Assembly (NCBI GenBank): GCA_965249835.1 | Contig: CBDFMY010000003.1 | Location: 358,286 to 422,285 of the forward strand | From: Candidatus Poriferihabitaceae bacterium | GTDB taxonomy: Bacteria > Pseudomonadota > Gammaproteobacteria > Arenicellales > Poriferihabitantaceae | Length of the DNA stretch: 64,000 bases | Direction: 5' to 3' | The notes under the pieces: generated by a model | Told to the model about the DNA's origin: nothing | Database searches by the model: none | Seen by the model: only the letters and a program-made list of their open reading frames with translations | Shown here: piece after piece, positions 17,953 through 22,474 of the stretch | Numbering within the stretch: position 1 is the first letter of the stretch | How the letters are laid out: each line of letters opens with the position of its first letter | Program-made: the position numbers and the translations under genes

Positions 17953-18318
17953 TCAGGAATTCATCTTGCGTTGATGTCCGGCATCTGTCAATTGCGCAAG
18001 ATAATTGCGCCAGTTTTCCGCTTGATTGACGCCCAGCGCGTAAAGCGTGTCCCACGAATAAATGCCGGTGGCGTGGCCATCGTCAAATATCGGCTTGATG
18101 GCGTAATTGCCGACCGGCTCGATGTTATCAATATTCACGCGCTCCTTGCCGACCTGCAACACGCCCTGCCCGGGGCCATGCCCCTGCACCTCGGCCGAGG
18201 GCGAATGAACCCGCAGGTATTCGCAACTCATCTCAAACTGCTCGCCGCCATCAAACGACACCGTCAGCATCCGCGTCTTGCGATTGAGATTAATTTCGGT
18301 GGGAGTGTGTTGGCTCAT
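17953..18318 (-). CDS. DUF971 (gamma-butyrobetaine hydroxylase-like N-terminal domain) protein
   Basis: 121 aa. [14 protein letters not shown]...[26 protein letters not shown] is the DUF971 signature. It commonly precedes ubiE. Confidence 0.8.
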
Positions 18319-19547
18319 ACCAGCATTTTTAGAATATCTTTTTGCGTCGTAGCAACATCCCTTTCGTTAATCGCAAAGATGCCGAAGTTGTTTTGCTTGG
18401 TTTCCGTTACCATTTTTCTAATAAGATCTTGGTCGGCTTGATTCACCTCATTGCCGTGAAAAAACTTAACAATTTCTTGATCTGCCATTTTGCTATGAAA
18501 AACGCCTCGCATTGTTTTTGATGTTAGCCCAACAACAGAAAAGCATGGCATTTTTTTGTTGTTGAATCTAAGTTCTTTTATATTGGAAAACAATGCTAAT
18601 TTTATGAAAGCGTCTTTGATGTCGTTGGTAGAAGGGAGCAATTTCTTCTCGCTATGTTTCTTTTCCACTAAAAATATTCGATCATCCAAAACAAAATGTT
18701 CATCTGCCGTGAGGTAATATACCCCGCCTAACAGGTTTTTTATAGTAACGGTGGCCTTTTCGCCGGTGACTTTTTCCTTAGGCTGGACTGTTAAAACTTC
18801 TCGACGTTGTGCTTTTATAGCCAATTCTCGTGACAATTCCTTAAATTGAGAAGTGTCTGTTGTTATGATTTGTAGTCTTTTCTCAATACCCTGTTTGCGG
18901 TGCATTTTGACTTTTAATTGATTGCTTATTTTTTGATATGAATCCAAAGTTAATTGAACAACTTTGGGCAGTTCTTCCATTTGCTTTAAATTCCAATGTA
19001 GCGCGCTGGAATGATATTGTTGCAACTCGATAAGTTTTTCATAAACATAACCATACTCTAAAACTTGTTTGGTGATTTTGTTTTTATTCTCTTGCCCAGG
19101 CCGCATATTCCTTTCGGCATCGGCGTAATAACAAACAATCACATAAACATTAAGTAAACTCATCAGTGAAACAGTGTCCCACTGGATAAAATCCCGGTCT
19201 CCATCTGCCCCTTCATCTTTGCAAAAAGGGATTAATGCAACCCGATTTTTTCTGCACAATGTGTCATACACACGCGCAAATGGAAATGTGCGTGTTCGTT
19301 TGGGAGAAACCCATTGACTTAAAGCGTATTCTTCGTTGTCAAGTCTGAGAATAAAACTGCTTTTCGCGGATAAACGACCTTGCAACAAACCATCTTTATC
19401 AAAAACTTCTAATGGGTTGGAAAGATTAGCCTGATATTCTACTTCCTTTAATTCTGCAAAAATGTCGGCGGGTGCACTCATCGAATTAGTAAATAGTAAG
19501 TGTATGGTTCGAAAAATATAATTAATGATTCGGTTCAACATAATCAT
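18315..19547 (-). CDS. putative restriction endonuclease (PD-(D/E)xK motif near the C-terminus), family not recognised
   Basis: AT-rich 410-aa ORF directly downstream of two methyltransferase genes. Candidate catalytic motif ...LTADEHFVLDDRIFLVEKKH... (D-x14-E-K-K). The start is uncertain (19547, 19541 or 19481). Its stop TGA overlaps the ATG of the DUF971 gene (ATGA). Confidence 0.55.
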   Translation of the reverse strand: MIMLNRIINYIFRTIHLLFTNSMSAPADIFAELKEVEYQANLSNPLEVFDKDGLLQGRLSAKSSFILRLDNEEYALSQWVSPKRTRTFPFARVYDTLCRKNRVALIPFCKDEGADGDRDFIQWDTVSLMSLLNVYVIVCYYADAERNMRPGQENKNKITKQVLEYGYVYEKLIELQQYHSSALHWNLKQMEELPKVVQLTLDSYQKISNQLKVKMHRKQGIEKRLQIITTDTSQFKELSRELAIKAQRREVLTVQPKEKVTGEKATVTIKNLLGGVYYLTADEHFVLDDRIFLVEKKHSEKKLLPSTNDIKDAFIKLALFSNIKELRFNNKKMPCFSVVGLTSKTMRGVFHSKMADQEIVKFFHGNEVNQADQDLIRKMVTETKQNNFGIFAINERDVATTQKDILKMLV

Positions 19548-20346
19548 GGCTCACAACAAATATTTCATTCGACTTTTTGCTCGCGTTCATCCCATATCTC
19601 CAGTGCGTTGATATAAAACGAAACTCGCTATAAAAATCGCGCACCTGTTCGCAATCATTATACGACAACAACCATCGGTCACGCCTGTGTAGCAACTTGG
19701 CAAGCCCTTCGTGGTCGAAGTTTTTGTGGTGGTCTCCTCTCTGCCCGTATAAATTGCTGGACACGAAGTAAGGCGGGTCTAAATACAAAAAATCTTCCGC
19801 ATGGCGAGGGATGGATTGTTTGAAATCAGCATGTTCTACATAAAAATTATTTACTTTAAAGTTTGCAAGTCTATTAATGGCAGATTTGGTGAACCTTGGA
19901 TGTCCGGGTGACATGCCACCAGACAGCGTTGTGCCGGAAAACGAACTTCGGTTAAGCACAAAAAACTCCGCCGCGGACTTCTCACTTTCGTCGGTGTAGA
20001 CATGTTTCTTCTGCAACGCATAGAACGCATCCTTGCTCAACGGATAATACTCATCCACCAAGTCAGCCAGGCCAGACGGGTCGCGCAATAGCACTTGCCA
20101 AAAATTCACAAGTGGCAAGAAAGCATCATATACCTGAACCTCTACCCCTCTTGTAGCCAACGCCAATTCTACCGACCCACCCCCGACAAACGGAGAGCAC
20201 AACTTTTTCAAGCCCGGCGACAACAACTCAAGTATTCGCTTGACCGCACGAGATTTGCCGCCAGGGTAACGAAGCGGTGACTTTATCGGCTCGATAAACG
20301 GCGAACAATCTTGCCATGTATCGTTAACCAGAGATGTTTGTTTCAT
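19522..20346 (-). CDS. Dam-class (D12, alpha-group) N6-adenine DNA methyltransferase
   Basis: RYPGGKSR, motif I PFVGGGSVEL and motif IV YLDPPYF occur in alpha order. Confidence 0.85.
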   Translation of the reverse strand: MKQTSLVNDTWQDCSPFIEPIKSPLRYPGGKSRAVKRILELLSPGLKKLCSPFVGGGSVELALATRGVEVQVYDAFLPLVNFWQVLLRDPSGLADLVDEYYPLSKDAFYALQKKHVYTDESEKSAAEFFVLNRSSFSGTTLSGGMSPGHPRFTKSAINRLANFKVNNFYVEHADFKQSIPRHAEDFLYLDPPYFVSSNLYGQRGDHHKNFDHEGLAKLLHRRDRWLLSYNDCEQVRDFYSEFRFISTHWRYGMNASKKSNEIFVVSHDYVEPNH

Positions 20347-20392: not shown

Positions 20393-21499
20393 TCATAATT
20401 TGAGATGGTTAATTTTTTTCACGCCATACTCTATATACTGTTTCTCCGTTTCCATTCCGATATGTTTTCTTTTCAGTTTTTCCGCCACCAGATTGGTAAT
20501 GCCACTCCCTGAAAAAATATCGAGAACGGCGTCGTTTTCGTAGGAATAATATTGAATTACGCGGCGCGCCAACTCATCCGGGAATGGGCAGGGATGAATG
20601 TTTTCGCTCGGGGCAACCGGGCGGATATTCCAAATATTTTTGCTTTGCTCTTGATACCCCTCCAGATTAATTTTATTTGCCTTCTTTTCTTTCGCCGAAC
20701 GATTATGGTAAATGTTGTTTTCCAATTTTTTTGCGGCAGGTTTTTGAAATACAAAAACATACTCCACGGCCAGGCTCGGATAATAATATCCGGGATAAGG
20801 ATGTTGCATTAAAACACCACTTCTTTTATCCCTGACTACGCCCTTTTCCCAGATGATGTCCTCTTTGAATTGCCAGCCGATTTCTTCCATCCAGCAAACA
20901 AAATGAAAGGGCAATGCCACACGCTTCCCAGCCCATGCAACCGGTGAAATGTTAACTACATTGTGGCCGCCCGGCATTACTACTCGATATAGTTCCTTGA
21001 ATCTGTCTATCAGGAATGTTTTGTAATAATGATATGATTGCTCGGTTCTTTCCCAATGACGAATATCGCCTTTCAATTTCTTTATGTGATCTTCATAATT
21101 GATGGCGTTGTGATACGGCGGAGAGGTAAATGCCAATACAATACTGTCATCCATCAACGTCTTCATGCTATCCAGGCAATCACCGCAAATGAATTGTCCC
21201 AGGCCGGCCTTGTATACTTTGAGTTTCTCCCGGTTAATTCGAAAACGCCCACCCAACTCCAGTGCCGATATAATTTGCAGTGCTTTGGTTTTTCCCAACC
21301 CCTTGAAATTTAATAAATCTTCTACCTTGATTTTCGCAGTTAGACTAGAACGAAGATAATCAACTAATTCCTTGCTTAAAGAATTAATATCTTTTCCATT
21401 GTCGCCAGTGCCGAGAAGCACCGCTAACAACTCCTCTGTATTCAGTTTTGACGGTGGGTTGGAAAGGAGTTTTTCTCTAGACTGTTGGTCTGTTCTCAT
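20393..21499 (-). CDS. beta-class N6A/N4C DNA methyltransferase with an N-terminal RadC-type helix-hairpin-helix domain
   Basis: Motif IV FTSPPYHNAINY precedes motif I LDIFSGSGIT, which is beta order. The N-terminal ~95 aa (TEELLAVLLGTGDNGKDINSLSKELVDYL...FKGLGKTKALQIISALELGGR) resemble the RadC/UPF0758 N-terminal HhH region. Start taken at ATG 21497-21499, after GAGGAGG. Confidence 0.8.
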   Translation of the reverse strand: MRTDQQSREKLLSNPPSKLNTEELLAVLLGTGDNGKDINSLSKELVDYLRSSLTAKIKVEDLLNFKGLGKTKALQIISALELGGRFRINREKLKVYKAGLGQFICGDCLDSMKTLMDDSIVLAFTSPPYHNAINYEDHIKKLKGDIRHWERTEQSYHYYKTFLIDRFKELYRVVMPGGHNVVNISPVAWAGKRVALPFHFVCWMEEIGWQFKEDIIWEKGVVRDKRSGVLMQHPYPGYYYPSLAVEYVFVFQKPAAKKLENNIYHNRSAKEKKANKINLEGYQEQSKNIWNIRPVAPSENIHPCPFPDELARRVIQYYSYENDAVLDIFSGSGITNLVAEKLKRKHIGMETEKQYIEYGVKKINHLKL

Positions 21500-21500
21500 A

Positions 21501-21710
21501 TTAATTGGCCTCCTCGACCACTTCCGTTGCTTCATTTATGGCTAACTCAATGTCACTAATTGAGAAGTTATGCTTCTCTTGCTCCGCTTTACTCGATCCA
21601 TCCTTACCGGTATCGACATAAAACTCCGCAAGTTGCGCTGCACTAGTTCGGTCCTCTGCGGTGATGGAAACTAAATATGCGCGGCTTAAAGACACTATGT
21701 ATTGTTTCAT
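21501..21710 (-). CDS. small acidic hypothetical protein (69 aa), first gene of the R-M-like cassette
   Basis: Its TAA stop lies 1 nt from the ATG of the downstream methyltransferase (TAATATG). I recognised no HTH. Confidence 0.45.
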   Translation of the reverse strand: MKQYIVSLSRAYLVSITAEDRTSAAQLAEFYVDTGKDGSSKAEQEKHNFSISDIELAINEATEVVEEAN

Positions 21711-21733: not shown

Positions 21734-22474
21734 GGGTCATGACAACTTTAGCGGCTTTTTTCTAAAGTCATCAAGCAAGACTTTATACCAATCCTGCCCT
21801 CTATTATTGAATCTAAACTCACATTCTTTAAGGTGTAAATTGAACATGCTTTTGTTCATCCCCTTAAACTTGACCAGACGTATTTTAGCATAGCCCCAAA
21901 AAGATTCGATGCCATTGATATGACTATTGCCTCGCACAAATTCATTCCGACCATGATGCACTCTGAAATGTTTCTTATAGCCAAAATCAACCAGACCATT
22001 ATAGCCGCGCCAACCATCAGAATGAATGACGCTGCCTATCTCTGTTTTACCTAAGATAATCCGCTGTAGCGTATATGCAGAGCAATCTGGCACTATTTCT
22101 GTATAGACCTTCCCCGCTCTTTTGAGCAAGCCAAATACAATGATTTTGCCCCGAGCGCCTCGACCACGCTTCCCTTTAATGCGTCTAGCCCCAAAATAAC
22201 TTTCATCCACTTCGATCTGCCCGGCTAATGGCTGAGAGGCTTGTCGGCAATGACTGACCATTCGTAACCGAATAGCGGTCAAGTATTTGTTGATGGTTTG
22301 CCGACTTAAACCGGTTAATTCTGCTATTTGCGTCGCCGTTAAATCCACGGAAAAAATATTTGATTAAATCCCTGAATTTCCTCTCTGACACATGGGAACG
22401 AATGACATACCTGTTTTTTACTTTCATAACAACACCTTACCATGATATTGACCATGCTAAAGTTGTCATGACCC
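21734..22474 (-). mobile_element. IS1595-family insertion sequence (741 bp)
   Basis: 19-bp perfect terminal inverted repeats (gggtcatgacaactttagc at 21734-21752 and its reverse complement at 22456-22474). 8-bp direct target duplication ttaaaatt at 21726-21733 and 22475-22482. Confidence 0.9.
21737..22427 (-). pseudogene. IS1595-family (ISXO2-like DDE) transposase, split by a +1 frameshift
   Basis: ORFs 22203..22427 and 21737..22348 join if one T is removed from the T6 run at 22351-22356 (KYF-S-VDLTATQIAELTG). The DDE_Tnp_IS1595 body reads EVDESYFG...HSDGWRGY...INGIESFW. Confidence 0.8.

Follow-up and report, generated by a model that had tools for sequence, protein, structure and literature searches.

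[quoted passage not shown]

What does the N-terminal helix-hairpin-helix (HhH) domain of RadC do when it is found at the head of a DNA methyltransferase? The question is raised by a gene located in the stretch of 64,000 nucleotides of bacterial DNA analysed here (the window), and concerns a protein which is near-universal in bacteria and whose role in repair is disputed in 'RadC, a misleading name?', as cited in PMC3239186 and PMC5512222. [quoted passage not shown]

Start site and domain composition

The fusion gene is located at 20393..21499 on the minus strand and encodes a protein of 368 aa, as defined by its open reading frame (ORF) and by Pfam matches to PF20582 and PF01555. The longest version of the frame extends over 20393..21535 of the minus strand, for 380 aa. 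The ATG at 21499 was favoured over the start at 21535 because of three features: a Shine-Dalgarno sequence GAGGAGG, read from the sequence, is located 9 nt 5' of it (21509..21515, minus strand); the TAA of an upstream ORF of 69 aa (21501..21710, minus strand) ends 1 nt ahead of it; and about 58 full-length homologues have an equivalent start, with a methionine and 3-10 residues preceding PREKLL. These features therefore place the HhH region within the translated protein. A true start downstream of this region, which would have removed it from the product, is contradicted by the strong ribosome-binding site and by the homologue starts. The small upstream ORF has no match in Pfam, NCBIfam, PADLOC or PHROG, and was not found in the locus tables upstream of the fused genes at L001, L002, L004, L014 and L015.

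The N-terminal HhH domain (aa 1-90; 21230..21499, minus strand) is predicted to consist of five helices with two Gly-rich hairpins, LGTGDNG and KGLGKTKA. Its first 75 residues or so match UPF0758_N (PF20582), the RadC N-terminal HhH model of Pfam, with an E-value of 1.6e-13 and 50.9 bits against a cut-off of 27.1, the alignment spanning profile positions 4-76 of 77. The NCBIfam RadC models are also matched (E 5e-14), over their N-terminal 85-90 positions only, with scores below the respective cut-offs, i.e. 52.4 vs 180 for PRK00024 and 51.7 vs 133.85 for TIGR00608. No match to the JAB/RadC domain PF04002 was detected by Pfam in the fusion protein. By these profile matches, the protein is a borrower of the RadC N-terminal domain and not a member of the RadC family. 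In an alignment of 80 sequences the fused domain aligns end to end with 64 RadC N-terminal domains; its RadC relatives also match the Pfam models HHH, HHH_2 and HHH_5. A protein-atlas look-up of residues 1-95 gave scores of 0.81-0.83 and leads consistent with UPF0758_N/HhH, adding nothing new.

The source genome contains one canonical radC, separate from the fusion gene and adjoining coaBC, whose product shares 32% identity with the fused domain over about 100 residues (E 6e-11). At such a low identity, a recent copy of the host radC was ruled out as the donor of the domain, and the fusion is therefore not a recent local copy.

After a linker of only about 5-10 residues, the remainder of the protein is a beta-class amino-methyltransferase domain (aa 98-368; 20396..21208, minus strand), identified by sequence and fold matches to PDB entries and by a match to N6_N4_Mtase (PF01555; E 2.3e-40, 139.3 bits against a cut-off of 26.7). 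The motif IV sequence TSPPY, a signature of N4-cytosine type, is located at aa 125-129 (21113..21127, minus strand) and the S-adenosylmethionine-binding motif I, DIFSGSG, at aa 327-333 (20501..20521, minus strand), as read from the translation; motif IV precedes motif I, and the order is therefore that of the beta class. Both halves of the preliminary domain assignment are thus sustained: a profile match above the cut-off covers the RadC-like N-terminal region, and, with PF01555 present and PF04002 absent, a complete methyltransferase, TSPPY followed by DIFSGSG, stands where RadC would carry its JAB domain.

A type II restriction-modification cassette

The fusion gene lies within an island of low GC content (0.40-0.45 between 18.3 and 22.5 kb, vs 0.55-0.60 in both flanks), where the small ORF, the HhH-methylase, a D12 methylase and an endonuclease follow each other in this order, all on the minus strand. 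The D12 methylase (19522..20346, minus strand) is a Dam-like, alpha-class enzyme of N6-adenine type, which matches PF02086 with an E-value of 2.4e-28 and the Dam TIGR model below its cut-off. The endonuclease (18315..19481, minus strand; ATG at 19481, 388 aa) is of type II and carries a D-x12-E-K-K motif region. Its placement is due to PADLOC alone (REase_II, PDLC03572, E 1.5e-78), with no useful match in Pfam, NCBIfam, PHROG or among PDB sequences. The upstream end of the cassette is abutted by an IS1595-family element (21734..22474), delimited by perfect 19-bp inverted repeats and identified by Pfam and NCBIfam matches of its transposase.

The endonuclease is 47-58% identical to the products of the genes found downstream of the fused methylases at L001, L002 and L004; in all the long contigs that were examined the fused methylase is followed by a homologue of it, and the methylase-endonuclease pair recurs at L001, L002, L004, L007, L010, L014, L015 and L017. 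Adjacent, co-oriented methyltransferase and endonuclease genes, co-occurring across unrelated genomes, are what defines a type II restriction-modification system, and this is the arrangement found here. The D12 methylase is instead inserted between the two genes in the window and at L001, L015 and L017, and is absent from L002, L004 and L014; being optional across loci, it leaves the fused enzyme as the constant partner of the endonuclease. The fusion gene therefore belongs to a small type II restriction-modification cassette, of which it encodes the main modification methylase.

Among the species of the same genus that were searched, only one other (G006) carries the fused gene, at 76% identity. 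In other genomes the cassette is found amid unrelated housekeeping genes, usually with a GC content below that of its flanks. Low GC, the IS1595 element at the edge and the sporadic presence within the genus are best explained by horizontal acquisition of the cassette.

The N-terminal domain might be an autoregulatory operator-binding domain which, in the manner of M.SsoII, would time the expression of the endonuclease once the cassette has entered a new host. Methylases with a regulatory extension at the N-terminus are well established, examples being M.SsoII and M.EcoRII, with a helix-turn-helix in the M.SsoII type, and the fused systems at L002, L004 and L014 have no gene for a controller protein. 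When the 150 nt preceding each of seven fused genes were searched, neither a shared 7-9-mer nor a conserved palindrome was revealed, and the upstream spacers are only 34-124 nt long and unrelated to one another. In addition, HhH motifs bind DNA without sequence specificity, and, with the methylase and the endonuclease encoded in the same direction, repression would silence both. The autoregulatory role is disfavoured because a conserved operator is missing upstream of the seven genes, and is considered very improbable.

Catalytic domain and likely product

The residues T125, S126, P127, P128 and Y129 of motif IV are invariant in an alignment of 66 family members, and so are D327, F329, G331, S332 and G333 of motif I. 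N4-cytosine enzymes, N4CMT among them, have SPPY as their active-site motif, while N6-adenine enzymes, e.g. CcrM, feature DPPY (PMC10406627). In sequence and fold, the catalytic domain is best matched by TTHA0409 of T. thermophilus (2ZIE, E 2.4e-23), the rotifer N4CMT (8S9N, E 1e-14) and CcrM (6PBD, E 3e-13), together with M.PvuII (1BOO), whereas the PDB chains deposited as 'DpnA' (M1.HpyAVI) are matched at the motif I region only (E 5e-8). Because motif IV is SPPY, a strong, although not absolute, predictor of N4-cytosine specificity, the fused enzyme is probably an N4-cytosine methylase, yielding N4-methylcytosine (m4C). Some family members are labelled 'adenine-specific' by the automatic annotations of their sources.

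Distribution and evolution of the fusion

A search of 5.8 billion proteins revealed about 60 protein clusters carrying both UPF0758_N and N6_N4_Mtase, at 60-98% identity and about 58 of them full-length, from sponge symbionts, Cloacimonadota and many metagenomes. By its sequence distribution, the fusion is a recurrent architecture and not a unique or singular event.

Orthologues lacking the N-terminal domain were also found, about 285-295 aa in length and 62-75% identical in the catalytic part. At the two loci that were checked (L007 and L010), the partner of the unfused methylase is an endonuclease of the same family, matching the same PADLOC model. Mis-called start codons were ruled out as the origin of these two shorter proteins, as the preceding gene and the methylase start are separated by 44-126 nt, too little to accommodate the domain.

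In a tree of the catalytic domain, fused and unfused proteins are interleaved; parsimony requires 10-11 changes between the two states, at least four of which are forced by well-supported branches. With two more distant SPPY methylases as outgroup, parsimony places the fused state at the root, whose position is weakly supported, in a sample chosen by similarity to a fused query. When N-terminal domains are placed on a tree of their own, those of the family form a group, also with weak support. The simplest reading of these trees would be one old capture of the domain, followed by repeated loss.

The domain is retained under constraint, as judged from sequence conservation among 49 fused proteins. 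Pairwise identity averages 0.59 in the N-terminal domain vs 0.74 in the catalytic one, and PREKLL, the hairpin residues G30/G32 and G67/G69, K72-A73 and ALELGxRF are conserved in at least 88% of the proteins, most of them in 94-100%. The copy in the window has a Ser in PREKLL, where 98% of the family has Pro.

Predicted structure and dimerisation of the N-terminal domain

When the N-terminal domain was modelled alone with AF2, starting from a deep alignment, a five-helix bundle was obtained with a pLDDT of 91.7. In the full-length AF2 model the domain has a low confidence (pLDDT 45-77), and so has its placement relative to the catalytic domain and the DNA cleft. A Foldseek comparison of the domain model against the PDB gave no match at E<=0.001. 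The matches found by VIA-align all have Z<6, which the tool considers non-diagnostic for helical domains, and are to be read as a trend only: the best one is DisA (Z 5.4, rmsd 2.7 A over 60 residues), and (HhH)2 DNA-binding domains predominate, including those of DisA, Hef, XPF-ERCC1, UvrC, LigA, Endo III/MutY and NusA. SAM protein-interaction domains are also present among these weak matches.

The domain was further predicted to form a symmetric homodimer, with an ipSAE of 0.69 vs 0.00 for the best control, a mark attained, in the calibration of the tool, by 20 of the 30 solved homodimers and one of the 23 solved single chains. At least 87% of the contacts are in common between runs, and the pLDDT of the partners is at least 74. 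The predicted interface is formed by the most conserved helix (residues 74-91) together with residues 8-30, and leaves the Gly hairpins outside. Solved structures include dimers formed by the HhH domains of XPF-family proteins, and part of the score may reflect likeness to such HhH dimers. No DNA-binding or oligomerisation experiments on any RadC N-terminal domain were found in the literature searched.

The predicted dimer opens the way to an explanation in which the domain is chiefly a protein-protein module, which strengthens or regulates dimerisation of the methylase, or docks it to another factor, and makes no contact with DNA. The dimer score, well separated from the controls, the coincidence of the interface with the most conserved helix and the SAM-like interaction domains among the weak fold matches are all consistent with such a module, as is the need for dimerisation of beta-class methylases (PMC7544214). 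The Gly-rich hairpins, through which HhH motifs touch DNA, are nevertheless conserved in spite of their location outside the predicted interface, and neither the unfused orthologues nor the solved beta-class enzymes need more than their catalytic domains to dimerise; the dimer score, moreover, may derive from a resemblance to known HhH dimer structures. A role limited to protein contacts is therefore regarded as rather unlikely.

RadC modules on other methylases

In order to define which proteins carry the domain, residues 1-95 were compared by phmmer with 1.84 billion representative proteins at E<=0.001. The 1486 proteins detected are mostly RadC proteins or fragments: the top matches and those of unusual length that were checked carry PF20582, most of them with the RadC JAB domain, and most of the other matches listed have the length of RadC or are shorter fragments. 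The closest match outside the family, at 51% identity and with the same HhH subtype, is P0122, a protein of 471 aa in which the HhH domain is followed by a differently permuted SPPY methylase, whose motif I precedes TSPPY by about 200 residues. The gene of a PLD-like nuclease adjoins that of P0122, whose family is made up of about 50 fused clusters and of unfused relatives.

A third arrangement is found in proteins of about 602 aa, in which a whole RadC, i.e. HhH and JAB, is fused to a D12 methylase. One such fusion is encoded in a genome congeneric with that of the window (L020), and the best 120 database matches all feature the three domains, at 68-76% identity. In the P0280 operon, examined on three contigs, the P0280 gene comes first; an AlwI-family endonuclease and another methylase, of the beta class, are also encoded. 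At least three different fusion architectures thus combine RadC modules with methylases. The partners of the RadC JAB domain listed by Iyer and colleagues are HhH, ArdC-N, primase and helicase (PMC3239186, PMC5512222), and literature searches found no paper describing either a fusion of the HhH/RadC N-terminal domain to a methyltransferase or one of the whole RadC.

The occurrence of RadC modules on methylases in three or more architectures suggests a common DNA substrate, and this bears on the proposal of a targeting role, in which the HhH domain would bring the methylase to DNA that is single-stranded or enters by transformation or conjugation, and such DNA would be methylated, as by DpnA, before the complementary strand is made. 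RadC is a competence-regulon gene in Gram-positives, and RadC-type domains are found on conjugative elements, which enter as ssDNA (PMC5512222, PMC3239186); in addition, some beta-class enzymes, such as CcrM, methylate ssDNA (PMC7544214). The analogy with DpnA, from which the preliminary description had started, turns out to be weak on several counts. Within the cassette the fused enzyme is not a supplementary methylase but the constant one, its motif IV is SPPY and not DPPY, the endonuclease is unrelated to that of DpnII, and the chains named DpnA resemble the methylase in sequence at motif I only. The nearest structural analogues of the N-terminal domain are, moreover, mostly binders of duplex or branched DNA, in line with the behaviour of HhH modules, which mostly bind the backbones of such DNA. 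Targeting to single strands by the fused domain is accordingly judged decidedly unlikely.

A broader version of the idea applies to the RadC domain as a whole. The N-terminal domain would be a dedicated dimeric module, which targets whichever enzyme is attached to it, be it the JAB domain, an N4-cytosine or an N6-adenine methylase, to one particular DNA state, e.g. newly entered ssDNA, ss/ds junctions or replication intermediates. This is also held to be unlikely. Should it be true, the methylase fusions would give direct access to the substrate of RadC and to its function, and would define a class of restriction-modification systems which modify DNA at entry or at the fork.

A proposed role for the HhH domain

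The preferred reading, to which a probability of about 0.55 is assigned, is that the N-terminal domain is a dimeric, sequence-independent DNA-gripping and dimer-stabilising accessory, carried by the main modification methylase of an acquired cassette. Its accessory nature is indicated by two observations: unfused orthologues pair with the same endonuclease, and the same HhH subtype is found on a permuted methylase.

Beta-class methylases are dimers with a division of labour between subunits (PMC7544214), and in CcrM a C-terminal domain binds DNA non-specifically and holds the non-target strand (PMC6787082, PMC7544214, PMC10406627). For the HhH domain we infer DNA binding, dimerisation and a kinetic benefit, along similar lines. 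As beta-class enzymes are obligate dimers, two copies of the HhH domain would be present, and each would pair with its twin from the second methylase subunit. The paired domains would offer two Gly-hairpins, able to grip the DNA backbone with no sequence preference. The grip would stabilise the dimer on DNA and hold either flanking DNA or DNA of the non-target strand during recognition and methylation of the site by the catalytic domain, a role analogous to that of the non-specific C-terminal domain of CcrM. Many orthologues function without the HhH domain, and any benefit is therefore conditional.

The RadC N-terminal domain, and elsewhere the whole RadC, is repeatedly joined to methylases of restriction-modification operons, which ties the domain to the DNA being modified. 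The fusion is of value mainly as a way into the function of this domain, and the natural pairs of orthologues with and without it, sharing the same endonuclease partner, are ready-made controls. If the preferred reading is true, this would be the second beta-class enzyme, after CcrM, with an appended non-specific DNA-binding module; if the domain is only a generic DNA tether, the fusion would represent a modest addition to the catalogue of restriction-modification architectures.

Comparison with known systems

The gene corresponds to an ordinary restriction-modification methylase, provided with an uncharacterised but widespread accessory domain, and does not define a new system. Its relation to RadC/YicR (UPF0758; PF20582 and PF04002) is confined to the first 90 residues or so, with the motifs PRExL, LLAxLLGxG, GIGxxKA and ALELGxR, while the JAB/MPN catalytic domain is absent from the fusion protein.

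DpnA is also a beta-class enzyme encoded in a three-gene cassette, together with a Dam-like D12 methylase and an endonuclease. The roles are however reversed with respect to the DpnM/DpnA pair, since the D12 enzyme is the optional one here, and DpnA has no HhH domain. A DpnII-type system is characterised by a PF04556 endonuclease and by a DPPY beta-class second methylase, a combination which is not found in the cassette.

Among the SPPY/SPPF beta-class enzymes, TTHA0409, the rotifer N4CMT and M.PvuII share the SPPY motif with the fused enzyme and provide the best matches to its catalytic domain, but none of them has an N-terminal HhH domain; N4CMT is reported to have acquired a eukaryotic chromodomain. 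An N-terminal DNA-binding domain on a beta-class methylase is instead found in the ParB-methyltransferase fusions of plasmids and phages, where a ParB/Srx domain precedes N6_N4_Mtase. The fold of the N-terminal domain is a different one, and these proteins are usually orphan anti-restriction methylases, in contrast to the endonuclease-paired enzyme described here.

A functional parallel to the proposed role is provided by CcrM (6PBD), which shares the beta-class catalytic domain and the dimeric state, and has a sequence-independent DNA-binding module appended to it (PMC6787082, PMC7544214). The module of CcrM is however C-terminal and unrelated in sequence, the active-site motif is DPPY, and the enzyme is an orphan of the cell cycle with no endonuclease partner, whereas the HhH-methylase modifies DNA as part of a restriction-modification cassette.

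Organization and surroundings of the restriction-modification cassette

The M-R cassette, i.e. the gene for the RadC-N/methyltransferase fusion (20393-21499, minus strand) taken together with that for the 388-aa endonuclease (18315-19481), seems to insert into host transcription units, and perhaps rides on them. In several unrelated genomes (loci L002, L004, L014 and L015) only 34-57 nt separate its start from a preceding co-oriented housekeeping gene. In the window the end of the endonuclease ORF, at 18315, overlaps by 4 nt the next downstream ORF of the same strand, which starts at 18318. The gene for a D12 (Dam-like) methylase, located between the two (19522-20346), is a facultative insert, present in four of the loci compared and absent from three, and varying even between close relatives at 80% identity.

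The cassette opens with a 69-aa ORF (21501-21710), translationally coupled to the fused methylase through the sequence TAATATG. It is found where the gene for a controller protein usually stands; no helix-turn-helix was detected in it, it matched no entry of Pfam, NCBIfam, PADLOC or PHROGs, and five other loci lack it upstream of the fused gene. The cassette is immediately preceded by a 741-bp element of the IS1595 family (21734-22474), bounded by perfect 19-bp inverted repeats, whose transposase ORF is only 203 aa long and matches the family model starting from position 23. A promoter-like site (21745-21716, minus strand) is located at the inner end of this element and is directed into the cassette.

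Other methylases and RadC-type domains

The methylase complement of the 2.77-Mb genome G000 is unusually rich: eight separate loci resemble N6/N4 methylases of the beta class, and one of the eight has an internal TAA. Among the database proteins matched by the HhH domain of the fused methylase, the large protein P0123 (1781 aa, 'atypical Rib' domain) aligns with residues 3-35 of this HhH domain in ten separate stretches, with an E value of 2e-14, probably as a repeat or compositional effect.

A complete RadC, i.e. UPF0758_N followed by JAB, is joined to a D12 adenine methylase in proteins of 602-604 aa, encoded at L020:1959-3767, immediately 3' of ubiB in a genome of the same genus as the window (G007), and at L021:4001-9815. 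The three domains recur in 120 of the 120 best database matches to this protein, at 68-76% identity. In loci L021-L023 its gene is the first of an operon, together with those for a RE_AlwI-family endonuclease and a 260-aa beta-class methylase, and with a weak DpnI-like ORF.

A second family of HhH-methylases, represented by the database protein P0122, comprises about 50 clusters. Its members are 460-474 aa long, as at L013:380-3289, where the gene that follows matches PLD-type nuclease models (DrmC); relatives of 365-400 aa, devoid of the fused HhH, also exist. The N-domain is of the same RadC-N subtype as that of the window, at 51% identity, and is followed by a permuted SPPY methylase, in which motif I stands ahead of motif IV.
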